Counted from the first letter of the whole stretch, positions 1,283 to 44,784 are shown. The stretch is 63,229 bases of DNA, filler included, from Folioceros fuciformis (GCA_049999805.1; 8 parts of 8 records of this genome joined end to end with filler, not necessarily neighbours in it); one strand, 5' to 3'. The notes: generated by a model from the sequence alone, not told the origin. Made by a program: numbers and translations.

Positions 1283-1300
1283 TCCTCGGCAACGGCGCCA
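1283..1300 (-). promoter_or_regulatory. Primer-binding site, Athila-type (tRNA-Asp-like)
   Basis: Minus strand reads ...CCACA TTTT TGGCGCCGTTGCCGAGGA, a TGG-starting PBS 4 nt after the LTR end. Confidence 0.8.
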
Positions 1301-1962
1301 AAAATGTGGCGGCCGGATCTCGGGGAGTGGGGCTCCCTGAGCTCCGTCCTATAGTGGCCACACTTATTCCACTGTCGTTAGTATAGAATGGGTTTCAATC
1401 CCACCAAAGAGTGGCTGGTGTTCCCAATCTGCAGTGTATGTGATGACTTCTCCTAACTCCACAACTTCACAGCTCTTACATCCAATTGTTGACCCTCTAC
1501 TCTTGACCTTGCGACCCCTAGTCAGGACTTGGCTAGTTGCAAACAGATCAGGTCTGTCACCCCTAACCTGACTACACAACCTCCCACTTCACACTTCTCA
1601 CGTCTCACATCCCTCTTCCATCCAAATTACTTTGACCAGAGTAATTTAGTCTCCGGTCAGAGGTACTACTCACCTTCCGACAGACCTGCCAACTGCAGAC
1701 AGGTCAAGACTGTCACTCCTACCCTGCCAACAGTTCACGTCGCTACTGCCGACCTATGGACAGATCTTCACACTCTAAGCTACTGTAGCTGGTACTGCCT
1801 ACAACCCCCTCACTCCAAGTACTGGAAACCACAAGTCAGAACCTGCAGGAGGAAGCTACAACCAAGTTGCAACCCTCCCCCGTCAGATTCTGCCAGCACC
1901 ACGACAGAAACACAGACACTAATTATGGCGGATTTGAGGAAACACTGCCTCAGGCTCCTTGC

Positions 1963-4900: not shown

Positions 4901-5690
4901 GACTTTATCATCCACCGAAGCTGAGTACAAGGCATTGATAGAGTCAACCAAAGAAGCAGAGTGGGAACGATCATTCCTAGCCGGCCTGAACTTCAACCAA
5001 AAGATTCCTACAACTATATATTGCGACAATATGTCTACAATTGCTTTGGTTGGGAACCCTCATTTTCATGCTCGAACGAAGCACATTGAAATTCAGCACC
5101 ACTTCGTCCGGCACTCTGTTGAGCGGAAGGTGATACAGATTGAACATGTGCCAACGGAGCTGAACACTACCGACTTGCTGACCAAGTGTTTGTCAACACA
5201 TAAGCACAATTTCCACAAGGAAGCTCTGGGTTTGGTGGACTACAGCTCCTATCTACACTTCTCTTCTACAAAGCATTGATGGAAAATTGCTCACATCACC
5301 AGGAGTGGGACCAAACGGATGAAGCTTAGTGCCTACATCTAATCGTTCACCTCACTCTGGCAACTTTGCTTTGGCCGCCCTTTCCAGACCACCCAAAGCT
5401 CTTCATCACCCTGAAGATTTGCACACAACGCCTACAACTTCTAACTAGTGACGTGGTTAAGGGGGTGTGTTAAACCCCATTAGGAATGACCCGCTGGGGT
5501 TGTATATATATAACCACGGTCACGGGTTAAGTAATTAGGGTTGTATAGTAAAGGTCACTTAGAGTTAAACAACTTATGTATATAAGACACTCTTTTGATC
5601 ACTTAATATTATTGTCTTGTTTTCTTTATGACAAGTTTGCTCTTGTCTGCATCTTCCAGCATCTCTAGAATATTGTCTAAAATATTGACA
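1963..5690 (+). mobile_element. Ty1/Copia LTR retrotransposon, decayed; gag/PR portion missing at the 10-N gap
   Basis: 5' LTR begins 1963 (TGTTAAACCCC); 3' LTR 5468-5690 (TG...CA); PPT AAGGGGGTG before 5468; TSD CTTGC at 1958-1962 and 5691-5695; 2 mismatches in the 81 comparable LTR bases. Confidence 0.93.
2054..5279 (+). pseudogene. pol: Copia pol (GAG-pre-integrase, integrase, RT, RNase H) with stops and frameshifts
   Basis: LWHARLEH, LRSDNGSEF, QQNGVAKRRN, YKSRLVARGFSQ, LYVDD, SSTEAEYKA, HARTKHIEIQHHFVR, in INT-RT-RH order. Confidence 0.95.
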
Positions 5691-7455: not shown

Positions 7456-9931
7456 ATGGCCACACCTACTTTTACATCTGATCTTAAGGATAAAGACAGA
7501 TTTAACGGCACTAGGTATGACATATGGAGTGTTAGGATGAAATCAACCTTGCTTGCCCGTGGAGTCTAGAAGGTGGTTGATGGATCTGATCCGGACCCAG
7601 GCACTCCATCTAATCCTACAACAGCAAGAGTTACAGTTACCCAAGCACAGAAGGATACATGGGATAACCTAAATAGAATTGCCATGGCCTTGCTTGTTAA
7701 TGGGCTTGATTTAGATCTTGTCCCCGAAGTAGAGTTCCTCACAATGCCAAGGCAATTTGGGATCAGCTTGTAGGAACCTACAAAGTTGAAACTATGATGA
7801 GCTTATGCGCAGTAAGGCAGCAATTTTATACCTTGCGCATGAAGGAAGGAGATTCTGTTGCATCATTCACTAGTCGATTTCGGCATTTGCGTGCCCAAAT
7901 GGCTGCCCTTGGCACAACTATGCAAGAAGTGGATGCGGTGGCTCAGCTTCTCACCAGCCTGCCTCCCAGTTACCAAACATTTGTCACAACACAGAACGGT
8001 CTAATTCGAACTGCTGGCCAGAATGTCAAGCTCACATATGTCATTGGGGTTCTTTACCAAGAGGAGATGAGCCGCCAGATGTCATCAAGGGGACAACGTT
8101 CTAAAACAGACAAAGTATTTTCTGCGACAAGAGGAGGTCGTTTCAACACAAGAGGTAGAGGGAGAGGTCAATCACCTGCTCAGCGCAACATTACCAATCC
8201 TTCCACTTCAAAGAGACAAGGTAACTGCAATTGGTGTGGGACTCCTCGGCATTGGGCCAGAGAGTGCAAAAAGAAGAAACCTGGGGAGCCTCAGTGGGCA
8301 ATGCCTCGACCTGCAACTGCACACGCCATATCACAATCCAAAGATAAGGTTTCAGAACCTCAGTCTAGTAAGCAAGTAGTGAAATTCTTGACAGTCCACT
8401 TAAGCACTCACACAAGTGAGGTAGACAGTTGGTACCTTGATAGTGGTGCCACAGCTCACATTTGTTGTAACGAGTCCCACTTCACTAGCTTGACGCTTAC
8501 TAGTATCTCTGAAAAAGCTTTCTTGGGTGATGAATCCAGCTCCAACAGTCTGCACATACATGGTAGAGGAGTATGTAAGTTCCCACTTCATGATGATACC
8601 ATCTTAGTTTTACCAGGTGTTCTCTATGTGCCTAAGATGGCCAAAAATCTGATGTCCCTTAATAGGATAATGCAAATGAAGGATTTGATACTTATAGTCT
8701 CCGAAAGCATTTGTTGCTTTGCCCGTCATAGCTCCCCTTCTTGCTGCATTTTTCAAGTTGTCCTAGAATCAGAACTATATCGTCTGGATATCACTTGCAT
8801 TCGTCGTGAACAAGTTAATTCTACAAATGTTGGTCCTTTGACAATAGCCCAACAGGCTGGACTTTGGCACACCTGCCTAGGGCATGCAAATCGCTCTAAA
8901 CTTGTTGATCTATCTAAGCAGGACTGTTACAAGGAGCCCCTCCCTTGCTGATTTAAAGATCTGCTAATTTATGAAGTATGTGCTTTGGCAAAATAGCGGG
9001 AGACACCCTTTCCTACAGCTCCTACATTTCGACCCACAGCAGTTATGGAGTTAGTACATGCAGACTCAGTGGGAGACTTCAAGAACGATCTCTTGGTGGA
9101 GCACAATATTACTTTACCCTTACTGATGACTACAGCAGATATACATGGACTTGCCCTATGGAGCACAAGAGTGACACCTTTCTTTTCTTTCAAGATTGGT
9201 TGCTAGTTGTTTAAAGGCAGACTGGTCGTATGCTGAAGTTGTTCCGCACCGACGATGGAGGGGAATTCACGAGCTTTGCCTTTGAGCATTTCCTGGAGAC
9301 ACAAGGCATTATCCATCAGCTAATAGTTCCATACACACAACAACAGAATGGCATTGCGAAAAGAAAAAATCAGACGCTGATGGGGATGATGCAATCTATG
9401 CTTTTGTGGTCTGGATTACCTAATCCTTTATGGGTTGAAGCTGTAGTCACGGCTACCTAAATATTGAATCGTCTTACCTCTCATTCTGTTTCCGGTAGCA
9501 CACCTTTTCAACTATTTTGGAATCAAAAGCCGAGTATTTTACACCTGCGTAATTTTGGTTCTCGTGCTTTTGCTTATGTGCCTGCAAAGAAGAGACGTAA
9601 GCTTGATAATCGTTCAAGACGATTGATTTTTGTAGGCTACAGTGAAGTGACTAAGGTCTATAAACTTCTAGACACTCAAACAATGCAGCCAGTGGTAGCT
9701 CAAAGTGTTACCTTTATTGAGAATTTGATTCCTTTATCAGCTGATTCCTCCCTTTTACCTGGAACAAAGGAGGATCTTGTTAGTAAGGAGTATTCTGAAA
9801 ATTCACGTAATTACCCATATGATGCAGACGATGAGTCAAATGCAGGTATTGTTTTCCCCCCTGCTTCAGCTCTTTAGCCCTTGCCTTTAGCACTTGCACA
9901 ACCAGTCATCCCCGCACCACCAGCTGATGCT
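7456..9931 (+). pseudogene. gag-pol: Copia gag-protease-integrase, disrupted
   Basis: ATG 7456 ...FNGTRYDIWSVRMK; LRMKEGDSV; zinc knuckle CNWCGTPRHWAREC; WYLDSGATAH; RTDDGGEF; several stops and frameshifts. Confidence 0.93.
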
Positions 9932-10061
9932 TGTGGAGGCAAAACCCCGGGCACTGATTGCCAATGGGTTCCACCTTTAGTGGCCACACTTATCCCACTG
10001 TCGTTGAGACATTGGGTTTCGTTCCCACAAAGGAGCGATGGGGTTCCTTGCTGCTGTGGAT
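9932..10061 (-). mobile_element. 3' end of an Athila-type LTR (family A), inserted in Copia and truncated by the contig end
   Basis: Nearly identical to 53913-54040; similar to the reverse complement of 11160-11290. Confidence 0.85.
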
Positions 10062-10161
10062 NNNNNNNNNNNNNNNNNNNNNNNNNNNNNNNNNNNNNNN
10101 NNNNNTTAATTAATTAANNNNNNNNNNNNNNNNNNNNNNNNNNNNNNNNNNNNNNNNNNNN
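10062..10161. other. Artificial scaffold linker (N44-TTAATTAATTAA-N44); also at 22066, 34816, 44685, 51145, 55007 and 61285
   Basis: Same 12-mer (stops in all frames) centred in 100-nt N blocks, seven times. Confidence 0.95.
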
Positions 10162-10190
10162 ACTACTACCCCAAACTTTGGAGGTTCACA

Positions 10191-11290
10191 GTTGCTAACT
10201 TTAGGCCCGGTTCTGGTTGCTGATCCCACCTCTTCCCTATCTTCTCCCACTACTCATACTCCTCCCTTGTACGCAGGCTCAGCCACCAAGGGGGAATAGT
10301 TGCAGGGGAAGGCTTTGTGGGTAGCCCTCCAGCAAGGAAGAGGTGGCGTCCGCAAGAACTTTGAAGATTAGGCATCTTTCAAAGTCTCAGGGTAGTTTGA
10401 GAGGTGGTACATACTTGTGGTGGCATAGGGTCAAGCAGGTTGTAGAGCCAGCTCATTGGCGGCAAGATGTGCTAGGAAAATCTAAATAAGTGGCCGGTGA
10501 CAACTGGCTAGGCTAGTGGTCCTATTAAAATAATATTTCTCTAGCTAGAGAGAGGTGGAGTCAGAGAGAGGCTCCTATAAGATCAAGGGAGCATGTAGGA
10601 GGCAGATTATCACTTTGCAAGCTCTCTTAGGCTGTCCGTGCTTGGATACAACAGTGTGTGTGCCAGTTGTGCATGTGTGCAGCATCTGGAAAGGCTTTGA
10701 GAATTGGTGGCCAGGGTTAAGGGTAGGGTCCCTTTTAATTCTTGATCGTGCTCTCCGTGTCGTGTCTCCATGATCTATCATTTTTGTTTCCTCGCAGGGT
10801 TGGAGTGAGTGCCGACCATGCTTGCATGGTGTCTAGTAGGATCGTGGGTGGCGGCATGCTTTTCTTTGGGGTTAGTCTAGTGACTCTTGCCGGGTAGGGG
10901 GAGTCAATAGGAAAGTGTAGAAGGTAGTGGTGTCATTGTTGGTTGCTGGTTGTCGCTGGTGCTGGAGTGAGTGAGTGAGTGAAGTGAAGTGAGGGAAGTC
11001 GCAGATTTGAGAAGTTAGGGTCGTTGTAGTGATTGGAGTGAGTTTGTGGGCACCAAGAGAGGTCCAATTGTCTGCTGCACAACGAAGTTTGTCCCACTCT
11101 TGATCGGAGTTGGAGGGGAGCCCTCGAATCTATCATCGAGTCGATTGAGTCCGACCCTCCATCCAGAGCAGCTAGGAATCCCATTGCTCCTTCGTGGGAA
11201 CGAAACCCAATGTCTCAACGACAGTGGGATAAGTGTGGCCGCTAAAGGTTGAACCCGTTGGCAAACAGTGCCCAGGGTTTTGCCACCACA
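10191..11290 (+). mobile_element. Family A long LTR fragment ending CCACA; 10162-10190 is the 5' terminus of a further nested LTR on the minus strand
   Basis: Colinear with the reverse complement of 53913-55006; TATA CTCCTATAAG near 10573; 10162-10190 matches the reverse complement of 21690-21718. Confidence 0.85.
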
Positions 11291-11707
11291 TGCTACCCGG
11301 GAACTCTGAGTAGAACCGCGGAGAAATATCTGAAACAACACGTATTAGTTAGAAACCTGAGGTGGGACCCACCCTAGTAGTAGAAGCGGCTATCGGTTGT
11401 GGAGGCCCTACCGGTAGTTGTAAGGTTGGTAGTTGTAGAGACCCCTACCCCTGTAGCTGAGTAAGTCTTGGGGAAGGGGTGTAGGATTGAGCCGTGGTAG
11501 TTAAGCCATTTGAGAGGTAGTGGTAGTGGAACCTGTGGTACTAGAACCGGGGTAGGTAACACTCGACCTAGGTAGAGACCAACTTTTAGAAGAAACCTAT
11601 GTTATTTGACACAAATCATTCCCTTGGGATCGAATGCCAGTGCTTTAACGACATAGAGGGTTTGTGTGGACCTCGAGGTACCCCCGAGTACAATATTTTC
11701 CCCCACA
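11291..11707 (+). mobile_element. Family B LTR 3' fragment ending CCCACA, abutting Copia RT
   Basis: Similar to the reverse complement of 20375-20750 (CCACACAAACCCTCTATGTCGTT, GTGGGTCCCACC). Confidence 0.8.
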
Positions 11708-13531
11708 AGGTCAGAATTCGAAATGACTAATCAAGGGCCATTGCAATTTTGTTTGGGTATCCAGATTCTCAGGGACAGATTTCAAGGTACAGTCATCCTG
11801 CACTGGACTAAGTATTTAAAGGAGATTCTAAAAAGGTTCAACTTACATGAGGCTCGTCCAGTTGCCATGCCTTCAGCAATGGGGGAAAAGCTAACCCTTG
11901 AGCAGTCCCCTCAAACTGCTAAGGAGGAGTCGGATATGCTTGGAGTATCTTTTGCTGAAGCCGGGGATTGCCTAATTTTTCTTGCTGATTGGACGAAGCC
12001 TAACATCAGCTATTCCGTGAGTATGGTCTCTCAATTCTTGAAGAACCTTGGCATATCTCACTGGGCAGCAGTTAAGTGTATCATTACCTGCGTGGAACCT
12101 TGAGTTATGGATTACACTATACAAGCAATGGCAGTAGAGAATTTTAACTTACTTCTTTTGCCGATGCAGACAGGGCCTCGGATGCAAATTCTCACAAGAG
12201 CTTGTCAACTTATGCATGCCTGCTAGCCTCAGGTTCTATCAGTTGGTTCTGCAAAAAACAAACGTCGTTAGCTCTATCATCCACAAAGGCTGAGTATAAG
12301 GCCTTGACATAGGCTTGCAAGGAGATAGAGTGGGAGCGTCAATTTCTTGAGTCCCTTCACTTACCTCAGCCTGAACCAACTGATCTGCTTTGTGACAACA
12401 TGTCTGCCATTGCCTTGGTCTCCAACCCTTGCTTTCATGCCCGTACCAAACACATTGAGTTGTACACATTAGGGATGTGGCAGAATGAGGACTTGTCAAG
12501 GTGCAGTATGTTAACACAAATGAGAATACAGCTGATTTGTTTACTGAAGGTCTGTCCAGACAAAAACACTTCAAACACTTGGTAGCCTTGGGGTTGAGGG
12601 AGTTTGTCTTACCTACTCCTACTAGCTCCTAGAAGTCTATCTACTGTAGTCTAGGGACAACACAGACCTAGTACTCCCAAGCTACAGCTGTGTTCATTGT
12701 CTTTGTGCTGTGTCCTTCCCTACAAGTGTACAATAGTGTGCTAGCTCAAAGACAGTTTAGTGGATGAAGCTTATCGACAACAATCCAATCGTGGGCTGTC
12801 TTCAATAGGCTTACCTCTCTTCAACGCGGAGTAAACTGTATGGCCTTCCTTCATCGACTTAGCCGACATAGCCGAGCTTCTCCAGCTCACTAACCAGCAC
12901 ACTTACTTCAATATCTACTAGTGGGGGCGAGCATGTGTCTCTAGCTGGAGTAGTTGCGACTAGTTTATGCACTTCCAAAGTTTTGGCCTTGGCAGACTTC
13001 AGCATTTCTTCGAGCTTCTCGCATGCTTTCTTTGTCAGAAGGAGGTGCTTGATTAGGGTTCTATCTGCCTGCGATGGCCAGCAGTTCCTCTTCAGCTTCT
13101 CCTCGTTGGTTATGGTACTCCCTTCCTCACACTTTTCTCTTGGTCTCTTCTGGCTGCTAAGGGCTCCGTTGCGCGACCAAGTCATTATGTCCCACAGCGC
13201 AGCTCCAATAGCGATGGCAATGCCCAAAGTGACCAGTGCAAGGGGGCTAGATGTCTCCATGTTTCACAGTCTTCTCGCACCCTGCCTGCGAAGCTTAAGC
13301 GCCGAACACAGTCTCCGCGTGTGCGTACAATTAATCCTCCGGGTTTAACCTGTTTGATTAAGAGGGGTGTTAGGGTTTATGTTAACCCCGGTTAGTTAAC
13401 CTCACAGGTTAGGTTAGTTTGCTTAACCTAAGATTTACTCAAGACTATATAAGACTATTATTTATTATTGAACATTTTTACCTTTGATATACAACATCTT
13501 TTGTGTTTTGTGTCTTCTCTACACTTTATCA
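11708..13531 (+). mobile_element. Third Copia element, 3' part: RT C-terminus and RNase H pseudogene, long 3' region, PPT and 3' LTR 13368-13531
   Basis: FEMTNQGPLQFCLGIQI, HWAAVK, HARTKHIE; PPT AAGAGGGG before TGTTAGGG...TTATCA; LTR differs from those at 5468 and 6203. Confidence 0.88.
12859..13260 (-). CDS. Antisense accessory ORF (133 aa) in the Copia 3' region; hydrophobic N-terminal segment, helical C-terminus
   Basis: ATG-initiated open frame METSSPLALVTLGIAIAIGAALW...; starts about 100 nt from the PPT and 3' LTR. Confidence 0.5.
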   Translation of the reverse strand: METSSPLALVTLGIAIAIGAALWDIMTWSRNGALSSQKRPREKCEEGSTITNEEKLKRNCWPSQADRTLIKHLLLTKKACEKLEEMLKSAKAKTLEVHKLVATTPARDTCSPPLVDIEVSVLVSELEKLGYVG

Positions 13532-14655
13532 GGCATAACTTGCTTGAACAAGCCGCCCTGTCCCCTATCACACGTGCCCATGTAGCTGCATCATCCAACT
13601 TGACAACCTCCAACATATGTTTGGCTATGGCACTAGGTGGAACTAGTTCTCTGCCAAACAAGAGGAAGTAAGGGGAAAAATGGGCAAGAGCAGCATGTTT
13701 GCTTATGCGGTAGCCCATTGCAATGTAGGGAAGCATGAGGTTCCAATCTATCTTGGGCTATCAAAGACACAACTTGCGAAGCCCCTTCTTAATAGTCTGG
13801 ACCATCTGTTCAGCCAGACCATCAGCCTGTGGGTGGTTCCAGCTGGTCCTCTTTTGGTCAATAAGGGTTGCATCCATCAGATCCTAGAGTTCTCCTCAAA
13901 ACTTGGAACCCTAATCTTTAAGACACATTGCGCAATGTAGAAATGCTTTTGAGGTGCTCCTATAAGTCTTCTTTGGCGCGGCAACAATCTCCACCCACTT
14001 GCTCAAGTGCTCCATCATGATCATGGCATAAAGATTGCCTCGTGGGGTCTGTGGAAGCTCACCCAACATATCACAAGATGTGGTGGAAAGAATCCGGGGA
14101 CACCCAGGGGCTTCCCTCTAGCGGCCACACCTATCCCGCTGTCGTGTAGTCTAGCAGGTTTCGTTCCCTCGAAGGAGGGCCTGTCCTAGTTGTGTGTGTG
14201 CGACTCTATTCGTACCTTTCTTCTACCGCGACCCTCGCGAACCTGAATACACCTCCTACCTGCCAAACACGCCTCTGCTGTCGGCGACTCACTCCAGTAG
14301 GACACCCACGAGTGTGCGTGCGAAACACGGCACCTCACACCCAGGCGTCTGGGCCGTCACGATCCCCACCAAGCTACCAGGCGCTGCAGACGACGCAGCC
14401 GGCAGGAGCGCACTTGTTGGAACACGAACAAGTGTGCTCAGGCTTGGTAAGAAACAAAGACCAACCACTTTATCTCTTGAGCCCTATGACTCTTATAGAG
14501 TTCCTGGCTACTGTCGGTTGGGTTGGTTGATCGGGTAGGCAGCAATTGATGGTCCCTCACCTGCTACAGCGCTTAAGCGCATTAAACAGTGTCTTTAAAC
14601 GCTTAAACCACCCCTCCTACCACGTCTATCCTAACTACCCAACTCTATTGGGGAT

Positions 14656-15295
14656 GCTTCGGTGGTTCGAATGGGCAGGTCAAAATGGCAATCTTTGCAT
14701 CCTCTAGCCTACCACCAACTTTTCCTTCAACCTTAATCAAGTCAAGGTTGACATCACGTCTCTCCAAATCCGCCACAGCAAGCACAGCTTTCACTGCAAT
14801 TTCCGCCGGCATCCGTTTGCACCTACCCACTATCTTGGAAAATAGCGTCGTCATGCACGTCTGAATGAGAGGCTCAGCATTATCTGCACTGAAGTCAGAC
14901 TTGTGCGCGATGTGATTCAAGTGCTCAGTGTCGACCTTAGACGCTATCTCATACCCCTCAGCGATCCCAATGGGGCGGATGCCCTGATCTAGTAGCTCTT
15001 CTGCCTGCTCCAAGAGTGTATCTGCTGTAACTACAACTCCAGTTGTGTCGTCACCAATCTCAAAATCCTGACCTTTCAAAAGCTTGACCATCAGCTTCCC
15101 AATTTGATTCTCAACCTCCCTCTGCTCAAGTATTGTAGCCCCATCGTTTGTCACAGTGACATCGCCGTCCGGGCTCTGCAGCATCTTGTCCATGCCCTTG
15201 GGGCCGAGCGAGGTTCTCAGAATCTTGGCCACGGAATGAGTTGCCAAAATGTTGGCCTTTTGGGCATCCAACCCTTGCAGGCGAGCCTTCTGCTC
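14656..15295 (-). pseudogene. CCT5: Intron-free fragment of T-complex protein 1 subunit epsilon
   Basis: [67 protein letters not shown]; degenerate motifs and an internal deletion. Confidence 0.9.
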
Positions 15296-15604
15296 NNNNN
15301 NNNNNNNNNNNNNNNNNNNNNNNNNNNNNNNNNNNNNNNNNNNNNNNNNNNNNNNNNNNNNNNNNNNNNNNNNNNNNNNNNNNNNNNNNNNNNNNCTGCC
15401 GCTCAAGCTCCAGGCTGCGCTCGCGCTTGCTGAAGGCCTCCCACTCCCGTTCCCGCTGCAGGCTCCGCAGCTGCTCCTCCTCGCCCAAGCTCTCAGCAAC
15501 GGCGGCGCGTTCCCCCGTCCCTGTCCGAACGCCCAACGTTTCTCCCCATCCGCTGTTGATCCACCAGCCAGGCCGGTTGGACCAACCCGCCGGCCTCCTA
15601 TACC

Positions 15605-15790
15605 ACCGACCTGCTACTCACCAGCGTCTTCAGCACCGTATGGCCCGTAAGTCCCTGCATTGCATGCCGCGACCCGTCCTCATCCACCACCGTCAGCCGC
15701 AGCGTCCGATCCGCCACCTTGCACGACCCGCTCCGACTCCGGCTGCTGGAGCCGGCTATCGCCGAGCTCCCCATCCATCGCGCAGGCCTA
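15605..15790 (-). pseudogene. N-terminal fragment of a mitochondrial complex I-associated ferredoxin-like protein
   Basis: KVADRTLRLTVVDEDGSRHAMQGLTGHTVLKTL resembles the plant C1-ferredoxin N-terminus (KVADR.V.L...D.DG....I.GL.G.TLL.AL). Confidence 0.65.
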
Positions 15791-16039
15791 GCAGCTGCGT
15801 CCCATACTCCTCCTCGCTCGCGCTGCCTGCAAGAACGGGCTACCAGAACCTTCCTAGAAGAAGCCTCTCCTCCATCTCCAGAAAACCGCAAAGAAAGGGC
15901 CTTCTACCCCCGCTCCAAGAAGAGGCCTGATGTGGCCCTTCCGCCGTTAGGACAAAATGCTGCTGTGCGCGGTGCCCCCGCCACCAAGCCCTCCCGAGTT
16001 CTGGGAGCCGCCGCTGGCCGCATTCTGGGGTCGCCGTGC

Positions 16040-16535
16040 TGCCTGTAACATGGGAGGCTTCACCATCTGCTTCAGGTCATTGGTGTAGGCCTTCACTTCA
16101 TTTAGTTCTTGCTCCTTTGATGCTAGCTTAACAATCATAGCACCCTCTCTCCGTTTACTGAGCAACACCTGTTCTTTCATCTGGCGTTCAGAGTTGCTAA
16201 GGCGCTGCAATTCCTGCACAACCGCTTCAGGTTCTGGGGCAGAACCAACCGACATGAAAGGCTCATCGCGAAAGGCCGCATGCCATCGCTCAAGGTTTGC
16301 TGTTGTGGAATCGAGAGTTCCCTGCAAAGACTTGATTGCAGATTCTCGATCAGCAAGGCTGGCTCGCAGATTAAGGATCGTGGTGGTAGCATGATCAGGA
16401 GCTGCACCAGGTGAACCACCGTAGGTCTTTTTCGCGGGGTATATCTCTTCATCCTCATCATCAAGCTCCGAGAAGGCTCTCTTTCCACCTTTGTTATCAT
16501 CGCATCGTCTCCACCAAAGTCAAAATCATCCGTCC
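16040..16535 (-). pseudogene. FIP37: Intron-free N-terminal fragment of FIP37 (WTAP orthologue, m6A writer subunit)
   Basis: DDFDFGGDD...GGKRAFSELDDEDEEI...ATTTILNLRASL...WHAAFRDEPF..G.APEPE...KEQE..E.K...DLKQMVKP.MLQA; one frameshift; stops before RRLLLDPA. Confidence 0.85.
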
Positions 16536-19500
16536 AACCACTCCCGGCTTCCAAAAAAAAGCGCAATCCTGCCAAACCTCAGATCCCATCTTCCGCCACT
16601 ATGGCTCAATCCACCTCAGCGTCAGGGGCTGCCATCCGTCACCACCTTCTTCGGCAATCACCAACTCTTGCCCTGCACGTCAACAAATTTTACCTCCGCC
16701 CTTGCCTCCGTTTATTTTCCAAGAACAAATGCCAGCTCAGTCTCCAAGCGCGCTCCCGCTTCATTTCGCCTTTTCCTAACCTTCATCACCGTCTCCACAA
16801 CAACCGCCTCCATAGACCACCCCAGTCCCCAAAGATTGAGAGCTCACACAAGACCATCTGAAAAATAAGCCCATGATGGGCAAGGGGTGCAGCTCTGGGT
16901 GCTGCATGTTGAAGGATGCCTTGACACGGTCACATTGCTCGTAGCAGGCTACTTGCTCCCTCACCTATCCATGCATGCGATGCCAATAAAAATAAGGAGT
17001 CAATAGGTTGTAGGTGCGTTTGACCCCAAAATGTCCCATGTCATCATGCACCCTACTGACGGGGGCAACACGATATGCTGGGGGGTACCAATCGCTCCAC
17101 TCCTTGGGCCTATTTACGGATGAGGTATCCATCTCGCCAACAGTACTTGGCAGCTTGCTGGTGAACGTGTTCCTTTGTGGCCCTAGTCCATGTGGGGTCC
17201 TCTTGACCTGTCTGCACATATTGAAGAGTGGTAGGATCTTCCTAAATGTCCTTGGAGGACTGTTGATTTGTACCCACAAACACCTGTCCCAAACGAGTCA
17301 TGGCCACTAAGGTAGATACTGCAAACATAGTGTTGTCCTCATCATTCTGGTGAGCCCCAGTGGTATCCACAAAGCTGTTGTTAGGATTTCGTGATAGTGT
17401 ATAAGCATTTTGGTGCTTTACTCGTGGCCGATGTTCAACCTAGAATTCATAGTCTTGCAGAATCATGGCCCAACGTGCGAGCTCCCACTGAGCTTGGTGT
17501 TGGTCATCAGCCACTGAAGTGGCTGATGGTCTGTTACCAACGAGAACTTCTGGCCATATAAATATGGCCTGAAGTAGCATACAGCCCACACAGTAGCAAG
17601 GCATTCACCTTCGTAGCTATTGTAGTTGGCTTCAGCTCTGTTGTTGCTGCTTGAGGCATAAGCAACCACAAGCTCATGCCGTGCTTCATCTTGCTAAGCC
17701 AAAATAGCCCCCCGCCCTAGACTACTCCAATTTGTGTGGCCTATGAAGGGCTTACTGAAATAAGGCTTGGCAAGTATTGGTGCAGTGGTCAGCTCCAACT
17801 TCAAAGTGTCAAAAGCCTATTGTGCCTGTTCAACCCATGTCCACTCTACGTCCTTGCGCAGCAAATCATCAAGAGGCTTGGCAATCCTAATGAAATTGGG
17901 TGTATATACCCAATAGTAATTGCACAACCCCAAAAATGCATGCAAGGCTGATACTTTGGTTGGCTCCTTGACCTGCATAATTGCCTGGACCTTGGTAGCA
18001 TTTGGAGTGACACCATTAGGAACAATTCTATGGCCCAGATACGCCACAATGCTCATGCCAAACTCACACTTGGTTGGGTGGCATGTGAGCTGTGCCTTTT
18101 GTAGTCTCACAAACAGGTCTTCCAAGTGTGCCAGATGATCCTCGAAGTCCATACTGTGGACTAGCACATTGTCAATGTAACACATGAGATAGCTGGCTCC
18201 AGCCAACACTATGTCCATGACACGCTGAAAGGTCACCGGTGCCTTCTTGAATCCAAAGGGCATCACTAGCCATTCCCATAGCTGATTAGAGCCATGGAAG
18301 GCTGTCTTCTTGATGTCTTCATCTGCCACTAGAACCCTGTTAAACCCCTATCAAAGGTCTAATGTGGAGAAGAATATAGACTGTCCAATGCAGTCAAAAA
18401 TATCCTCTGGCGACGGCATTGGGTACCGATCCATGGCAGTTACTGCATTGATGGGCCTGTAATTGCCACACATTTGAGTCCACAGACCTTGGCTGTCCTT
18501 CTTGGGTGGCATCACGGTGGCAGCAGCATAGTCACTATTAGACGTATTAGGCTTGCCTCATACAGATCCTTGCATCTTGCACCCACCATGTCCTATTCTA
18601 TCTTACTCAACCTGTACTAGCGCCTATATACATGCTCCTGAGTGGTCAGGTTGATGCGAAAGGTTATGACATTGCACATCTTGAGCTCACGCATGGAAAA
18701 GGCAAAATAATCCATGTACTTAAGCAACAAGTTATGAATGCGGTCCTGCTGCCCCAGGCTTAGTTCTGAGCCCATCTTCCAAGGAAAATTAGTAGCAAAT
18801 ACCTTGGCTCTTGGATCCTCCTATTATGCTTTGGCTTGGTCAGATGTTGAAAAAGCAGCACATGATGCCAATATTGCATACTCCACCCCCCTAGCATCTG
18901 ACAAGAAAGGCAAATGTGTATAGCCTGGAAAGGGAAGATGAACAACAGCTTTGGGGCACATGCTGGTGAACAAGCTTGGGAGAAGCACAGGAATGACCTG
19001 GGCGTGCAGCTGGAAGGCAAGGCACATACTCACCAGCTAAGTAATGGCGTGGAGGTCCATGGCTCGGCCTAGTGCGCCCTTGCGCTGCCAATTGGTGACT
19101 GTGGGAGCAGCAGTGCAATGGGTTTGATCACCTGAGAACCTTTGGCAGTCCTCCGGTCCGAAGGCACAAGCAGTGATCTTACTCGAACAGAGAATCTCTG
19201 CAGAGTGTCATGCACGTTTAGTTGAATATGGTTGCTTTGTTGCATTCACAGTTTGGTAGCAACCCTAAGCATTTTGTCATTTGCCGCATAGCACCCAGTG
19301 GTGCCCTTGATGAAGCCTCGTGTAAGACCAAGAAAGTGCGACCCCATATTTGCGAACGACGACAATGTTACCAAGAGGCTAAGACCAAGACCATGATTGT
19401 GGAAACAAATGGGGTTGATGAGAGACCAACTTGAAGTCCTATATGAGATGGCCAGACTCCAAAAACATGTAGACGGGCAAGGGACTAGGACTCTATCTAT

Positions 19501-20374
19501 GCACTAAGGCCTATGAGCACAATTAAAAATCAAGGAGCACAAAAAGCATTATATTATGAGAATTACCATGTACCTGCCCGACTGTTTTATGTAGCGGAGT
19601 TTGGAAGCATGCCGTGAGGCAACACCATTGCCAAATGGCACGAGCAATGTTTGGTTGGGAAATGAACAAGGAATTTGAAATGGAGGCTTTAGGTGGTGCC
19701 ACAACCTGGAAATTGCAGGTATAGTAGGTTAGGCTACTTGAGCGTACAAGGATTTGCTCTCTTGCTTCAGGGGCGATTCCCCCTTTTGTACAAGTGTGGG
19801 GGTGGTGGCCAAGAAGGTTGCACCCAACTATTCGTCTACCTAAAACTAATTCCAGTTTCGGGATCCTACTTGACTGCCTACCTAGTGGGTAGTTACAGAA
19901 TTGCTAGTCTTGCCAACATAACGGTTTGAATAGCCACTGGTCTAAATATCAGTAAATAACGAATAACTTAATAACCAAAAATTAGCAAATAACCAAATAA
20001 TAGCGAATAGTGGATTAACAATTACGAAATCAAATGACTCATCTTTATAGCAGCCAGATGAGGCGAATAATGAATGATCAGATGGCGTTTCGAACACGGT
20101 ACCTTGTTCGTGTGCCCTAGCTCTTGATCTAGCCGAGTCTGTCACTGTTGTGACATCCTCCTCAAAATGGCGCAGGCAATGTTTGGGCAGGAAATGAATG
20201 AGGAATTTGAAATGGAGTCTTTGGGTGGTCATTGACCATGCGGTCCTTATTGACTCAGATCCTCCACACTCGAGCGCCACACCACGTCATTGCCAAGTAC
20301 AACTCGCGCACGGACGGCAAGGAAATTGTCAATATCTACAGTTTGAACCAGCGACGAGCCTCGCTTTAACCTAG

Positions 20375-21689
20375 TGTGGAGGAAAATGTTGTGTCTGAGG
20401 ACATCGTGAGGCCCACACAAACCCTCTATGTCGTTGTAGCCATGGGATTTGATCCCCTAGGGAATGATTTGTGCCAAGTAACACGGGTTCCTCCTAATAC
20501 TGACTCTTACCTAGGTCAAGCCTTACCTACTATCAATTCTTCTACTGACTACCCCCTTCCACTACCCCTCAATTAGTCTAGCTATCGCAAAACCTACTCT
20601 ACGACTCTGGTCCCTACTCTATGACCGCTAACGTGGCCTCTAGTAGCTTCCACAATCATGGTGGGTCCCACCCGATACCCTAACTAATTATGTTCTGGCG
20701 CCTACGTCGCCGCAAGTTCCTCCACGGGGTTCTACCCAGAACTCTAAGATTCGCAGGTCAGGGCTTATTGAGTACTTTTCACACATAAAGATGCTAACCC
20801 CCGGACAACCAGGTCTTGCAGATTAGCCACACCCCACATTCACATCCCCATAGCACTTCCATCCGATGCAAAACGCACTAGGTCTCGGGTGTACACATAC
20901 TCCTTACCAACCCGTCTCAAGTACCGTCAATTGCCAGCCAGGTCCACGTACTTCCAACCAGGCTTCATCAATCTACCGGGGCTTCCTTCAACCTCCCCTT
21001 GACTCACCGCAGCCCACAGTTCAGGAAATAAGGGAAGGAGGGATCCTCCTTCCACTCCGCGTAGTGGGCGGATTCGTCTCCCTCACTGTAGCTTACACCC
21101 AAGCAGTCTTCCACTCTCCTCACTCCTTCACCTCCTTTGTCTCCAGCTCCACACTCCTTCTCACTTCACTCACTTCTTCTTCTCACACACACTTTGCTAC
21201 TAAGTCCAGGATGCAACTAACAGTCGGGGAATAAGGGAAGGAGAAACTCCCCCTCCACTCCGTGCAGGGGTTAGATTCGTTCCCCTCTCCTCAGCCACAA
21301 CCCACAATCAGTCCCCACTTTCACTCACTTCTTAATACTGGATTTGAAATGCAATTTAAGGGTCAGGGAATAAGGGAAGTAGGCGCCCCTCCTTCCGCTC
21401 CACTTACGAGCGGATTTGTCCCCCTCACCTCAACCACAAACCATAGTTCAGTCGTTTTGGGGAATAAGGGAAGGAGCGATTCTCCTTCCACGCAGCGAGG
21501 TTGGCGGATTCGTCCCCCTTCACTCCCTACCGTGGAGCACAATGAATGCTCCTAGGAATAAGGGAAGGCAACCTTCCACTCGATAGGTACCCCCGCCGAT
21601 TCATTCCCGTCACCAGCCGATGTGGAGCAAAGAAAAATGGACACCTCTCCTTCAGGAGCACCGCATGCCCGTTTCCACCTACATCCCTC
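20375..21689 (-). mobile_element. Family B long LTR fragment containing five hairpin-forming repeats
   Basis: TGTGG terminus at 20375; homologous to 11291-11707; cut by another LTR starting at 21690. Confidence 0.75.
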
Positions 21690-22065
21690 TGTGAACCTCC
21701 AAAGTTTGGCGTAGTAGTTTGTTTTGGTTGAAAAAGGGTTAATAGTGGTATGGTTTGGTTTTCTTTTTCAACTTATTTTCCCTAATTTTCCTTGATTTTT
21801 TGATCATTTTTCCTATTTTTCTTTGTGCTAATTAGGTTAATTGACCAGGAAATAGTTGGTTTGGTTATAAGAGTGGGTATAGGTTTGGTCCCAGACCTGG
21901 GAAGGTTTAGGTTCGGTACCAGGCCATAGGGTTGGGTGATTAGTTTAATATTAATTAAAGATATATAATATTAAATGATTGAATAATAATATTATTATTA
22001 ATATTAAATAATAATAATATAATAAAATAAGGGTTTGAACATAGGAACGGGTATCTGGGTATGTC
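21690..22065 (+). mobile_element. 5' end of a nested Athila-type LTR
   Basis: Begins TGTGAACCTCCAAAGTTTGGCGTAGTAG, the same terminus as 10162-10190 (minus) and similar to 16848 (minus). Confidence 0.7.
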
Positions 22066-22165
22066 NNNNNNNNNNNNNNNNNNNNNNNNNNNNNNNNNNN
22101 NNNNNNNNNTTAATTAATTAANNNNNNNNNNNNNNNNNNNNNNNNNNNNNNNNNNNNNNNNNNNN

Positions 22166-22420
22166 GGATTGATGGATCTCTATATGATTAGTTTTAGAGT
22201 GCGAGCAAATTCATCCATCCTTAGATATGCAACCCAATCACCAAGCTAAAGGATTGATGGATCTCTATATGATTAGTTTTAGAGTGCGAGCAAATTCATC
22301 CATCCTTAGATATGCAACCCAATCACCAAGCTAATGGATTGATGGATCTCTATATGATTAGTTTTAGAGTGCGAGCAAATTCATCCATCCTTAGATATGC
22401 AACCCAATCACCAAGCTAAT
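22166..22420. repeat. Tandem repeat, 85-bp unit, 3 near-identical copies, at the contig edge
   Basis: Units start at 22166, 22251 and 22336. Confidence 0.95.
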
Positions 22421-23031: not shown

Positions 23032-23355
23032 CGTGGACAAGGTTTGAATCGAGAGTAGGCTTTGCTTGTGTGGACAAGTTTGAATCGAGAGCAGATTTTG
23101 TTTGTGTGGACAAGGTTTGAATCGAAAACAGGCTTTGTTTGTATGGACAAGGTTTGAATCGAGAACAGGCTTTGTTTGTGTCGACAAGTTTGAATCGAGA
23201 ACATGCTTTGTTTGTGGCTTTGATTGTGTCGACAAGTTTGAATCGAGAACATGCTTTGTTTGTGGCTTTGTTTGTGTCGACAAGTTTGAATCGAGAACAT
23301 GCTTTGTTTGTGGCTTTGTTTGTGTCGACAAGTTTGAATCGAGAACATGCTTTGT
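23032..23355. repeat. Minisatellite, about 35-48-bp units with core GACAAG(G)TTTGAATCGAGAACA.GCTTTGTTTGTG, 8 copies
   Basis: Directly visible; produces repetitive pseudo-ORFs in several frames. Confidence 0.92.
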
Positions 23356-24493
23356 CAGAGGTAGGCATGACGACTGAAGCAAGAGATTACTTCAATTGTA
23401 CCACTTGCCATGTGAATAGGATGTCATACACAATAGAGATGTTTAAGCAGAACAATCCATCACTCAAGCATGCCAAGTTTCAAGGAAAGGTGAATGCACA
23501 ATTGCTAAGAAAAGCAAGACCATGGCTAGTCTACTAAGCTTACACACAGGCAACCATTGTCCACTTAGAGGCAATCAATTGGATACACATAGTTGTGGCA
23601 AGTGCCTCATTGTAGTAGTAGGTGGGGAAGACAGAGGAAGGTGACTTAGGGGAAGACAGAGGAAGGTGCCTTAGACCTTACATAGATCAAATGAACAAAG
23701 CCAAGGAAGGAGGGCGGTGTCTTGGACCTTGCATGGATCCAATGAACAAGGAAGAAGGAGGAGGTTGCCTTAAACCTCACATGGATCATATGAACAAGCT
23801 AGGGAAGAAGGAGATGGGTGGCTTGGACCTTGCATGGATCAAATGAGCAGGACTATGTGCACCCAAGCCCTTTACCCAAGCACAAACCTTGTAGCAATTA
23901 TTCCCATCATCAAATGCACAAGACATGCATGGAGTCTTAGCAAAACCCTAACTTGGAAAGTCCAAAGCAACAAAAACAATTATAGCAACACCTACATGAC
24001 AAGATTTGTTCACTAGTAACATTAGACAATTTTGATATCTTTAATTAGTATTATGAATAAGTTATCCCATTTCATAAGACCACTTGTTTTCACAAATATC
24101 CCTTCCTAAGTTACATGTGCAATATATGTATATTATATGAAAAATATTAAAATAACTTGCTCAACCGGAAACTGGTTACGAAGCCGTATTTCGGTCGTAT
24201 TAATATATAATAAACGAGAGATTTGCCACATTCTGGCCTACCCAAATGATATGTGTAGTCTAAGTTGACACCAAGACACTGACGCGAGGGTACGTAAGAC
24301 TGGTTGGGTATAAGACACTATTGCGTTGGGGCAGGTAGGGCTTGCCTTTGACCTAAGTTCATAAGAAGCCCAAGCCCGCCAAAATGTTGAGCCCTGGAGG
24401 CTTGAGTTGTGGAGCCGTGGAGTAGGGGGTAGTGTGTCCGCGATGTAGCCCGGAGCGTGGAACAACAGCGATTTCCTTGGCCAACGGGACACA

Positions 24494-32286: not shown

Positions 32287-32787
32287 CCTCTGGCAGTTCC
32301 ATATGAGTCTGCCACTGTCGTGGACGACAGTTGACGGTAAGGCGAGTTTTGGGCCTGTGAAGTTCATGGGATGATGCGCAAGGCATTAGTCAAGCTGATT
32401 CATTTATCCGGGATCTGTTTGTTTCTCAGGAGGACCTAAGAGCGCCTGAGGGTAGACGAGTTTTCCCTCCACGAAGCTATGGCCTACACTCCCCGATCTC
32501 CCCCCTCGGGACAGTACGGTTCTGAAGAGTTCTTTTGATTGTAAGTAGGTAGCTACCGGAGGACTATGAGCAGCATGTACAGTACACGATCTTGTATTTG
32601 TGGCGCTTATTCCCAATCCCAGAATCGACGTTCGTGTAACCACCCTAATTCAGGATTTGTGCCTTGTGGCCACTTATGCCCAGTTTCTTAGTTACGAATG
32701 GGGACTTCATTAATGAACGTGCTATTTTCTGGATTGAGATTAGTTTGTTTATGCACACATTTTTATCCTCAAGTCCAGTAACACCCC

Positions 32788-33240
32788 TTCTAGGAGGACT
32801 CGCAGCCAGCAGCTAGCAGCCCGCCCTCCTCTTCTAGGAGGACTCGCAGCCAGCAGCTAGCAGCCCGCCCTCCTCTTCTAGGAGGACTCGCAGCCAGCAG
32901 CTAGCAGCCCGCCCTCCTCTTCTAGGAGGACTCGCAGCCAGCAGCTAGCAGCCCGCCCTCCTCTNNNNNNNNNNNNNNNNNNNNNNNNNNNNNNNNNNNN
33001 NNNNNNNNNNNNNNNNNNNNNNNNNNNNNNNNNNNNNNNNNNNNNNNNNNNNNNNNNNNNNNNNGCCCGCCCTCCTCTTTTAGGAGGACTCGCAGCCAGC
33101 AGCTAGCAGCCAGCAGCTAGCAGCCCGCCCTCCTCTTTTAGGAGGACTCGCAGCCAGCAGCTAGCAGCCCGCCCTCCTCTTCTAGGAGGACTCGCAGCCA
33201 GCAGCTAGCAGCCCGCCCTCCTCTAGGATGACTCGGAGCC
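32788..33240. repeat. Tandem repeat, 44-bp unit TTCTAGGAGGACTCGCAGCCAGCAGCTAGCAGCCCGCCCTCCTC, at least 7 copies around a gap
   Basis: Period 44 visible (32791, 32835, 32879, 32923); array collapsed at the N gap. Confidence 0.95.
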
Positions 33241-44683: not shown

Positions 44684-44784
44684 ANNNNNNNNNNNNNNNN
44701 NNNNNNNNNNNNNNNNNNNNNNNNNNNNTTAATTAATTAANNNNNNNNNNNNNNNNNNNNNNNNNNNNNNNNNNNNNNNNNNNN

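Follow-up and report, generated by a model that had tools for sequence, protein, structure and literature searches.

An LTR-type insertion with host-gene sequence on its U3 side splits a Ty3/Gypsy integrase gene in Folioceros fuciformis

Results

Anatomy of the insert and its empty site

The window, that is, the whole stretch of 63,229 nucleotides analyzed, consists of several contigs joined by N44-TTAATTAATTAA-N44 linkers. It contains a degenerate Ty3/Gypsy element on the minus strand, in which Pfam recognizes RVT_1 (17817–18347, 5.7e-18) and Integrase_H2C2 (16965–17297, 3.4e-8); the rve match at 13911–14078 is weak and under the cut-off (profile positions 10–60, E = 0.024). The element is interrupted by an insert at 14079–16848, whose termini on the plus strand are TG (14079–14080) and CA (16847–16848). 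The features are listed in Table 1.

Table 1 Features of the insert and of the element that it interrupts. Positions are those of the window.
Feature	Position	Strand	Evidence
Degenerate Ty3/Gypsy pol (RT, then integrase), split by the insert	13458–18347	−	RVT_1, Integrase_H2C2, weak rve, ORFs
TSD CAAGA, left copy	14074–14078		Sequence read; empty-site paralogues
LTR core: proximal U3 with TATA-like box, R, U5; ...CA at 14079	14079–14655	−	Run contigs
Conserved U5 block, common to other ATHILA-type LTR ends in the window	14115–14177	−	Alignment
Predicted TATA-like CTCTATAAG, downstream of all cargo	14492–14500	−	Sequence read
CCT5 (TCP-1 epsilon) fragment, sense to the LTR, in-frame 72-nt deletion	14656–15295	−	Pfam, CCT5 alignment, X3 contig
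100-N scaffold gap, probably 3 bases (CTT)	15296–15395		X1 and X2 contigs
Piece E, host transcript fragment	15396–15553		X3 contig
C1-FDX/NDUFX fragment (complex-I ferredoxin-like, AT3G07480-type), sense	15610–15783	−	PDB matches, X3 contig
Piece D, host transcript fragment	15776–16044		X3 contig of 986 nt, 6 differences/269
FIP37/WTAP fragment (N-terminal half), sense to the LTR	16041–16531	−	BLASTP, Pfam, PDB, X3 contig
Piece B, host transcript fragment	16555–16776		X3 contig of 347 nt, 4 differences/222
Piece A, 37-nt fragment of another transcript	16775–16811		X3 overhangs at 16775 and 16811
LTR 5' tip (TG...), sole non-cargo sequence on the 16848 side	16812–16848	−	Sequence read
TSD CAAGA, right copy	16849–16853		Sequence read; run contigs

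The earlier note described a TG...CA insert that splits a Gypsy integrase and is flanked by a CAAGA target site duplication (TSD), and this description is borne out by the termini as read, by junction contigs, and by empty-site paralogues. DNA contigs of public runs cross both junctions with no differences (13712–14133, 13712–14108, and 16816–17300). In paralogous Gypsy contigs, 14065 is linked to 16852 with 11 letters between them, i.e., 16 minus 5, which is the length predicted for a 5-bp TSD. The pentamer CAAGA (or CATGA) is present once in these paralogues, and CACAAGACC is present once in four X1 and four X2 contigs of the empty site. Runs X1, X2, and X4 come from one sample, may be the source reads of the window's assembly, and are not independent of it.

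Protein families found by Pfam within the insert are those of host genes only. Neither a terminal direct repeat longer than 30 nt (repeat search) nor a PBS (motif search) was found inside the insert, and a two-LTR mini-element (a TRIM or LARD with internal cargo) was rejected on these grounds. The inverted repeat common to both termini is TGTG only, judged by eye, and the repeat search gave no terminal inverted-repeat pair in the insert among arms of 12 nt or more. Pack-MULE, CACTA, and Helitron origins were rejected, since the 5-bp TSD differs from 9-bp or 3-bp TSDs with terminal inverted repeats and from the TSD-less ends of Helitrons. That the insert is a discrete LTR-type insertion, with its U3 side filled with host-gene sequence, is supported. 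The scaffold gap probably hides only three bases; one X1 and one X2 contig link 15295 to 15396 via CTT, with a shorter side of 28 letters, under the 31-letter rule for matches.

LTR core, U5 end, and 5' tip

DNA contigs of the LTR core have word depths of 210–454 vs 9–23 in contigs bearing unique flanks, where word depth is not to be read as copy number. No RNA-like contig over 14096–14591 was found among the run contigs. The U5 block is 79–83% identical to 11248–11187, 53955–54016, and 9974–10035, with sub-blocks at 90–95%. Three X1 contigs run from 14074, at the U5 end of the insert, into CCCGGCAACGGCGC. If the two bases that follow are included, this gives, behind a 3-nt spacer, the ATHILA PBS TGGCGCCGTTGCC in reverse complement. 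In the passage cited from the ATHILAfinder preprint, this motif has a spacer of 3–6 nt, which is AT-rich in Brassicaceae; the spacers here are TCT and TTTT. In a neighboring contig of the window, a PBS at 1285–1300 (minus strand; motif at 1288–1300, 4-nt spacer) adjoins a similar LTR end at 1305, whose likeness to the U5 end of the insert was judged by eye and gave no BLAST match.

The PBS at 1300, from which the orientation of the insert had been taken, is not physically linked to it, because the window is made of joined contigs, and therefore orients it by family analogy only. The minus-strand orientation of the LTR itself stands, and its U5 aligns with three LTR ends. On sequence grounds, the U5 end can be assigned to a tRNA-Asp/Asn-primed ATHILA-type Ty3/Gypsy LTR family. 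The TATA-like CTCTATAAG placed near 14492 reads as such from 14500 to 14492 on the minus strand.

The 5' tip behaves differently from the U5 end. A 20-mer search of the window with up to three mismatches returned only the tip itself (1/1), and a 13-mer search gave matches at chance level. The last 100 nt on the 16848 side gave, by blastn-short against the window, matches of 14 nt or less only (E ≥ 1). A unique-flank contig begins 33 nt inside the tip, and no polypurine-tract neighbor of the tip was found among the run-contig overhangs listed. The claim that both ends match other LTRs in the window is thus confirmed for the U5 end but not for the 5' end.

Host-transcript pieces in the insert

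Approximately four-fifths of the insert is patched together from host transcripts, in at least seven pieces. RNA-like contigs of run X3 tile 14656–16811 and match, outside the gap, all but approximately 79 nt (15554–15609 and 16532–16554). The depth of X3 gene contigs (29–155) exceeds that of the Gypsy contig (17.5), a pattern opposite to that of the DNA runs, and X3 is therefore argued to be RNA, as an automated guess also has it. For every X3 contig listed, the match is confined to a single piece, with 95.4–98.2% identity, beyond which the contig departs from the window (share 0.77).

The CCT5 piece (Cpn60_TCP1, 3.1e-48 by Pfam) corresponds to residues 19–216 plus 241–255 of plant CCT5. The X3 contig of 2745 nt differs from 14699–15295 at 24 positions and continues in an overhang that codes for the genuine N-terminus of CCT5; of the 160 positions invariant in six plants, 16 are altered in the piece. 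The fragment formerly called ferredoxin is indeed ferredoxin-like and is, more precisely, the N-terminus of C1-FDX/NDUFX of complex I (9 nt of 5'UTR and the first 55 codons; PDB 8e73_FD, E = 1.4e-8; 7aqq_O, E = 8.4e-5), with 8 differences in 174 nt from an X3 contig of 3043 nt. The FIP37/WTAP piece matches residues 24–174 of Marchantia WTAP (58% identity, E = 4e-60 by BLASTP; PDB WTAP, 3.4e-4; Pfam Wtap, 1.4e-6, under the cut-off) and has two deletions relative to its transcript, one of 1 nt and one of 6 nt; over 491 nt, the comparison with the 1335-nt X3 contig shows 9 differences and 7 gaps. The three host fragments of the earlier note are confirmed, and are sense and uninterrupted, but the count rises to at least seven pieces.

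No Pfam family was found in pieces E, D, and B. One frame of piece E gives a coiled-coil-like peptide, and its X3 contig matches 15396–15553 only, with unlike overhangs at 15396 and 15553. On the plus strand of piece B, the ORF listing shows an ATG and, after it, a Ser/Thr-rich peptide free of acidic residues. The X3 overhang at 16811 next to piece A opens with ATG when read on the minus strand. An antisense orientation of any unnamed piece would conflict with simple minus-strand template switching.

Junctions, introns, and further copies

Adjacent pieces overlap by 8 nt (15776–15783), 4 nt (16041–16044), and 2 nt (16775–16776) in contig coordinates, and by 6 nt at the bridged gap as read from the overhangs. 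Overlaps of 2–8 nt at four junctions agree with the prediction from template switching. The CCT5 and C1-FDX pieces diverge from their transcripts by 4.0–4.6% vs 1.8–2.2% for the 5'-side pieces (Fisher p = 0.009; 0.11 with gap positions counted). Serial capture, in more than one round, is weakly supported by the sequences.

In six metagenome loci (L001–L006), the match to the CCT5 piece extends without interruption over 711 nt. L005, the only locus for which ORFs were listed, is a bryophyte-like genomic contig with a complete, uninterrupted CCT5 ORF of 535 amino acids. Since an intronless CCT5 exists there, the uninterrupted CCT5 piece is no proof of cDNA origin. Of 13 CCT5 loci examined, which were plant-like or from other eukaryotes, 9 have a break in the coding sequence at residue ~66–68, and in 7 of those 9 there is a second break at 173/174; both sites lie inside the uninterrupted piece. 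A cDNA origin of the cargo is likely, and we infer that its capture was RNA-mediated.

At the D/FIP37 junction, spanning contigs with a depth of 63–72 show 5 differences from the window in 394 positions and 10 in 473. Contigs of the CCT5 piece with a deletion of 15–16 nt, which is missing from the transcript contig, have a depth of 128–170. By their differences from the window and their higher word depth, such variant contigs suggest that other cargo-bearing copies exist.

Discussion

The locus is probably best explained as an ATHILA-type solo LTR, approximately 2.67 kb long with the gap resolved, whose U3 was stacked with at least seven host-transcript pieces by template switching of reverse transcriptase (RT). 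On landing, it disrupted the integrase gene of a Gypsy element older than itself and produced the 5-bp duplication. Its retrotransposon sequence would be limited to 37 nt at the start and 577 nt at the end, the latter with the TATA-like box, R, and U5, so that approximately 2.1 kb of cargo would lie in U3 upstream of that box. While copying the 3' U3 of the element RNA, RT may have used short microhomologies to jump to host mRNAs packaged alongside that RNA, and to return. In the next cycle, the 3' U3 sequence would be copied into both LTRs, and the stack would therefore be inherited and amplified. LTR–LTR recombination would later have removed the body of the element, the cargo stack outliving it. 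The locus is now probably an inert relic.

A single aberrant RT product could also have integrated directly as a one-off chimeric cDNA, without ever forming an LTR pair. Such a product would have the order U3 tip, several host mRNAs, and proximal U3-R-U5, and the tip is just 37 nt long. A lone LTR-like unit is known from retroviral biology to bear both integrase recognition ends. The 5' tip has no counterpart among the LTRs of the window, and a full-length cargo-bearing element was not seen. This origin is nevertheless unlikely, since the contigs at cargo junctions differ from the window by 1–2% and have several-fold higher word depth. The deletion variant of the CCT5 piece also points to several copies with the same junctions, and the unique-flank contigs reach approximately one word length into the insert on either side, which would be expected of ends that recur elsewhere.

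Assembly of the pieces at the DNA level, from genomic genes by double-strand-break repair (microhomology-mediated end joining with filler DNA) or ectopic conversion, is likewise unlikely, if anything a little more so. The junction microhomologies of 2–8 nt suit end joining equally well, and missing introns are not decisive given a bryophyte-like genome with an intronless CCT5. However, the RNA-like contigs account for nearly all of the cargo outside the gap, no non-transcribed DNA was recognized in it, the three nameable pieces are all sense, and the CCT5 breaks fall inside an uninterrupted piece. It is very improbable that the mosaic arose artificially when short reads were scaffolded over repeats and the N gap. 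The window is indeed concatenated from contigs with many gaps, one of them the 100-N gap within the insert. Unscaffolded contigs nevertheless span both insertion junctions, the D/FIP37 junction, and the B/A junction, extend 20 nt beyond the CCT5/LTR-core junction, and bridge the gap with three letters; no scaffolding went into these contigs, although their reads may be those of the assembly.

A solo LTR with captured transcript pieces should be compared with known gene-carrying LTR elements. The cargo of Bs1 of maize is reportedly located between its LTRs. The insert is unlike Bs1, as its cargo lies within the LTR, in U3, is kept in a solo LTR, and comprises at least seven pieces. In the passages cited, Bs1-type transductions contain exons only and resemble the insert in that several host genes are taken up, in sense, presumably via reverse transcription (PMC7264820, PMC4717578); transduced sequences in LTR elements are mostly sense (PMC7264820). 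The Bs1 and TRIM cases described there agree with the earlier statement that capture by LTR elements usually sits between the LTRs (PMC7264820, PMC4717578). Soybean TRIMs of the GmaRetroS15 type are described as small and non-autonomous, with TSDs of 5 bp, as in the insert, and with intron-free exon pieces of at most three genes (Gao et al. 2016, PMC4717578). Gene-carrying TRIMs were amplified after capture, according to the same passage (PMC4717578), and have two LTRs with internal cargo, whereas the insert is without terminal direct repeats and PBS.

Coding-fragment capture by Ty3/Gypsy and other transposable elements is reported as common in Platycladus, with two or more fragments in an average of 13.68% of host elements (PMC13477047). 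The part of a maize survey cited here reports no LTR element that combines pieces of two or more genes (PMC2774510). Unlike the insert, the passages from both studies place no cargo inside LTRs, though the supplementary tables may include such cases (PMC13477047, PMC2774510). As is proposed for the insert, foreign sequence was put into an LTR in BARE-2/Veju chimeras, for which abnormal template switching between co-packaged RNAs is described; the donor in that account was another retrotransposon (PMC13317346), whereas the likely donors of the insert are host mRNAs. Cassandra TRIMs are described as carrying 5S rDNA-related sequence inside their LTRs (10.1101/2023.07.14.548913). As far as that account goes, they are like the insert in having cellular gene sequence within the LTR, so that it is doubled in each cycle. 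A Cassandra-type LTR was rejected for the insert, as no Rfam family reached the gathering score in 10162–22065. The gene in Cassandra is a single conserved pol III gene, from which a promoter is obtained, whereas the insert has many pol II mRNA pieces of no evident use. Gene capture by LTR elements is thus well known, and the insert is an unusually dense example of it, with a many-gene stack inside U3.

Window architecture and the insertion event

The window consists of eight contigs and seven linkers, each with TTAATTAATTAA between two runs of 44 N. Since the linker is a six-frame stop, the window represents eight unrelated contigs, and adjacency across the linkers is meaningless. The insert at 14079–16848 is contained in the contig at 10162–22065, which has one ordinary 100-N scaffold gap (15296–15395). 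Evidence beyond the window came from public sequencing runs (X1 to X4, whose contigs were aligned to the window), protein databases, one metagenome scan, and papers. The four tandem repeat arrays in the window (Table) lie partly within LTR-like sequence. Elsewhere, an 81-nt stretch with a TATATATA run occurs twice (1963–2043 and 5468–5548); the two copies, 98% identical and 3.5 kb from each other, flank a 10-N gap and the coding region of another transposable element (TE). A nested insertion may have split a single LTR into this pair.

As described in the earlier note, the insert is a TG…CA unit (TG at 14079 and CA at 16848 on the + strand) with a perfect target site duplication (TSD), CAAGA, at 14074–14078 and 16849–16853, and it splits a Gypsy integrase. 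The flanks are degenerate Ty3/Gypsy pol on the minus strand. Run contigs have zero differences over 13712–14133, 13712–14108, and 16816–17300; because they cross both insert ends in this way, both junctions exist independently of the scaffold. In paralogous Gypsy contigs (400 nt in X2 and 9251 nt in X3), 14065 is joined to 16852 with 11 letters between, whereas the same interval in the window minus the insert has 13 + 3 = 16 letters. The shortfall of 5 letters equals the target site duplication exactly. The empty site is read once as CACAAGACC in four further contigs each of X1 and X2. The insertion is genuine.

Table. Coordinates of features in the window
Feature	Position	Strand	Basis or remark
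Linkers, TTAATTAATTAA	10062–10161, 22066–22165, 34816–34915, 44685–44784, 51145–51244, 55007–55106, 61285–61384		six-frame stop
Tandem repeat arrays	22166–22420, 23034–23403, 32755–33268, 54397–54550		units of 85, 48, 44, and 41 nt
RVT_1	17817–18347	−	profile match, Ty3/Gypsy pol flank
Integrase_H2C2	16965–17297	−	profile match, Ty3/Gypsy pol flank
rve	13911–14078	−	weak match in Ty3/Gypsy pol flank, profile positions 10–60, E = 0.024, below cut-off; directly after insert
Conserved U5 block	14115–14177, 9974–10035, 11187–11248, 53955–54016; 1345–1410		last one by eye
CCT5	14699–15295 (plus 14656–14698)	−	X3 contig, 24 differences/597
E, unnamed	15396–15553		X3 contig
C1-FDX	15610–15783	−	X3 contig, 8 differences/174
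D, unnamed	15776–16044		X3 contig, 6 differences/269
FIP37	16041–16531	−	X3 contig, 9 differences/491 and 7 gap positions
B, unnamed	16555–16776		X3 contig, 4 differences/222
A, unnamed	16775–16811		X3 contig

Identity and orientation of the LTR

On the + strand, the beginning of the insert can be aligned with repeat ends at three other places in the window, 9929, 11293 (reversed), and 53913; the block 14115–14177 is 79–83% identical to these, with sub-blocks reaching 90–95%. A similar end lies at 1305, and there the + strand carries, ahead of the end and separated from it by four bases, the reverse complement of TGGCGCCGTTGCC. [quoted passage not shown] The matches in the U5 block and the PBS beside the 1305 end thus indicate that 14079 is the U5 end and that the LTR lies on the minus strand. 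The earlier note had set the orientation by the PBS at 1300; the 1305 end beside it is in another contig and serves by analogy only. Three X1 contigs run leftward from the insert end into CCCGGCAACGGCGC, the same PBS with a 3-base spacer, showing that full-length relatives with the U5 end of the insert exist. The 5′ end had also been said to match other LTRs in the window. This was not borne out, as searches with a 20-mer (≤3 mismatches), a 13-mer (≤2 mismatches), and the last 100 nt (blastn-short) gave only self or chance-level matches. Neither an internal direct repeat longer than 30 nt nor a PBS was found within the insert, which is therefore no small element with cargo between two LTRs.

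The TSD copy at 14074–14078 is identical to the five bases next to the LTR end in full-length copies (X1 contigs at 14074), which on the + strand are the 3-nt spacer and the first two PBS bases. Chance, at about 1 in 1000, may explain this coincidence, or the element may have lost its body via deletion between these two pentamers and not by LTR–LTR recombination; both routes give an identical product.

A U5-proximal block of ~65 nt is kept (about 75–95%) among LTRs that are otherwise unalignable. A few dozen bases separate it from the PBS, and by eye it resembles tRNA arms, a likeness that would suggest extended primer contact. A tRNA-like nature was rejected, since Rfam (E ≤ 10) gave no tRNA match on 14060–14260 or 1270–1470, and ARAGORN predicted none anywhere in the window.

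Host-gene pieces in U3

Of the insert, only a 5′ tip of 37 nt and a 3′ part of 577 nt are retrotransposon sequence, and host-gene pieces fill almost all of the rest. The fragments of CCT5, ferredoxin, and FIP37 listed in the earlier note are all present on the LTR strand, though their total of three is too low, because run contigs delimit more pieces. The placement of the cargo in U3 also agrees with that note, as the TATA-like CTCTATAAG at 14500–14492 (−) is downstream of every piece.

The CCT5 piece (Cpn60_TCP1, 3.1e-48) corresponds to residues 19–216 and 241–255 of plant CCT5, with an in-frame deletion of 24 residues (217–240). The "ferredoxin" is the N-terminal part of C1-FDX/NDUFX, a ferredoxin-like subunit of complex I (8e73_FD, E = 1.4e-8; AT3G07480 chain, E = 8.4e-5). 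The FIP37/WTAP piece covers residues 24–174 of Marchantia WTAP (58% identity, E = 4e-60); its top protein matches are from liverworts (55–58%), and Pfam and PDB matches are weak. For A, B, D, and E, a Pfam search on all long frames gave no family, and one IQ motif (E = 0.23) was disregarded.

In X3, 18 contigs aligned to the window, 77% continuing unlike the window, and each listed contig matches a single piece only. The overhang of the CCT5 contig past 15295 encodes the true N-terminus missing from the fragment, indicating that the X3 contigs are parent transcripts, not element transcripts. That X3 is RNA is a guess of the alignment tool; in its favor, gene contigs have depths of 29–155 and the Gypsy contig 17.5, the reverse of the DNA runs.

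The CCT5 piece is decaying, with substitutions at 16 of the 160 positions that do not vary among six streptophyte CCT5 proteins. By our estimate, its open frame is explicable without selection at 4% divergence. Among protein-database entries of the length class "near", no near-identical CCT5 ORF carried by a TE turned up, the best match having 76% identity, and the organism's own CCT5 was not recovered either.

Joining of the pieces

Neighboring parent alignments overlap by 8 nt (15776–15783), 4 nt (16041–16044), 2 nt (16775–16776), and 6 nt at the scaffold gap. X1 and X2 have one contig apiece in which CTT alone separates 15295 from 15396, the shorter side of these bridging contigs being 28 letters, slightly below the 31-letter threshold. 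The gap therefore probably hides 3 bases only. At the bridged junction, a 6-nt stretch is common to both parents' overhangs and the mosaic, and piece E and the CCT5 piece are in one reading frame if the gap is three bases. One short X4 contig passes from the CCT5 piece at 15127 directly into the post-gap sequence (the start of piece E). Both 15120–15127 and 15288–15295 end with TCTGCTC. The contig may represent a copy that has lost 168 nt in frame; otherwise it would be a converted read placed wrongly.

LINE-type retrocopies inserted singly are argued against, since the cargo pieces have neither poly(A) runs at their ends nor duplications of their own. Template switching by reverse transcriptase between element RNA and co-packaged mRNAs fits, because the overlaps are short, the nameable pieces are sense, and the cargo is almost wholly transcribed sequence. 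By established retroviral biology, sequence in the 3′ U3 is copied to both LTRs in the next cycle. Template switching between co-packaged RNAs is known for BARE-2 and Veju, according to a review (PMC13317346).

No interruption occurs in the CCT5 piece (about 640 nt) or in the FIP37 piece (about 490 nt). However, six metagenome loci (L001–L006) match the CCT5 piece along an uninterrupted 711 nt, and L005, the locus whose ORFs were read, has a complete, uninterrupted ORF of 535 residues (9842–11554) on a 143-kb genomic contig with AT-rich flanks (31–33% G+C). The contig looks bryophyte-like, with an intronless CCT5 as the apparent reading of the ORF and a retrogene as the alternative. Among 13 other CCT5 loci, the coding sequence breaks at residue ~66–68 in nine, and also at 173/174 in seven of these, both positions falling within the CCT5 piece. 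Because CCT5 is uninterrupted in L005 yet broken by introns in those nine loci, a cDNA origin of the cargo is likely, with the intron evidence as its weak point. The 24-residue deletion was also considered as a skipped exon. This idea was rejected: in the intron-bearing loci, the closest exon boundaries fall at about 207 and 233/234, or the region holds no intron, and in none of the loci does the deletion correspond to an exon. The deletion is bordered by repeated …ED codons and is better read as slippage, or a jump, from one short repeat to another.

Further copies and order of capture

Contigs spanning the D/FIP37 junction have 5/394 and 10/473 differences from the window. Word depth, which is not copy number, is 63–72 in these contigs, 92 in a contig over the B/A junction, 128–170 in contigs with a 15–16-nt deletion in the CCT5 piece that is absent from the transcript contig, 210–454 in LTR core contigs, and 9–23 in unique-flank contigs; X1, X2, and X4 are one sample, maybe the assembly's own source. 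The unique-flank contigs reach 30–55 nt into the insert on the left and 33 nt on the right, roughly the length of a single 31-letter word. The junction and deletion variants, the depth contrasts, and the stops of the flank contigs suggest that further cargo-bearing copies exist.

CCT5 and C1-FDX together differ from the transcripts at 32/771 positions versus 19/982 for D, FIP37, and B (Fisher p = 0.009; 0.11 when the seven FIP37 gap positions are counted). These values weakly suggest at least two capture rounds, in which the older pieces would adjoin the LTR core.

Possible consequences

Nothing indicates that the insert locus is currently active in any way. It lies within a dead Gypsy copy, the TATA-like box points away from the cargo, and no transcript over two pieces was found among the X3 matches listed; no RNA data set was listed as containing the stretch as a whole. 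On 13600–17300, G>A changes occur at 95 places in X4 and C>T changes at 52, versus about 28 each in X1 and X2 from the same sample, the pattern of a bisulfite-converted library; contigs give no methylation levels.

FIP37 is an m6A-writer subunit and CCT5 a chaperonin, and both, with C1-FDX, are essential genes. Near-identical sense copies of these genes end up within repeat DNA. The LTR itself, beyond the internal region, can carry a long multi-gene transcript stack that persists in solo LTRs. Such units are open to mis-annotation as genes or pseudogenes and are raw material for exon shuffling, and presence or absence of pieces among copies could yield a dated template-switching record for plant reverse transcriptase. 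In a broader and, in our judgment, rather improbable scenario, U3 of this ATHILA-type lineage would act as an open-ended cargo bay: serial template switches at microhomologies would add host mRNA pieces, newer ones at the 5′ side, every transposition would double the stack into the two LTRs, and solo LTRs would scatter sense copies of FIP37, CCT5, and C1-FDX in silenced repeats, with possible small-RNA or methylation feedback on the parents. Such feedback on FIP37 is speculation, though testable, since cargo and parents differ at 2–4% of sites. One study associates TE capture with elevated methylation of the donor genes in gymnosperms and maize (PMC13477047).

Comparison with known systems

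The accessible portions of the papers cited here describe Bs1 and hundreds of gene captures by LTR retrotransposons in maize, rice, and sorghum (PMC7264820, PMC2774510). TRIMs contain intron-free exons from up to three genes, amplified after capture, with the cargo in the internal region (PMC4717578). Gymnosperm genomes have about 400,000 captured fragments each, with two or more in 13.68% of host TEs (PMC13477047), and the maize survey gave no LTR element with fragments from more than one gene (PMC2774510). For host-gene cargo inside an LTR or U3, searches of the accessible literature gave nothing but a paper on TRIMs; supplementary tables may hold similar cases. As in the insert, cellular or foreign sequence resides in the LTRs of Cassandra, which has 5S sequence there (10.1101/2023.07.14.548913), and of BARE-2 (PMC13317346), again as far as the accessible text goes. 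Gene capture by LTR elements is itself known; what we rate as new here is an unusually dense stack of many genes in U3, preserved in a solo LTR.
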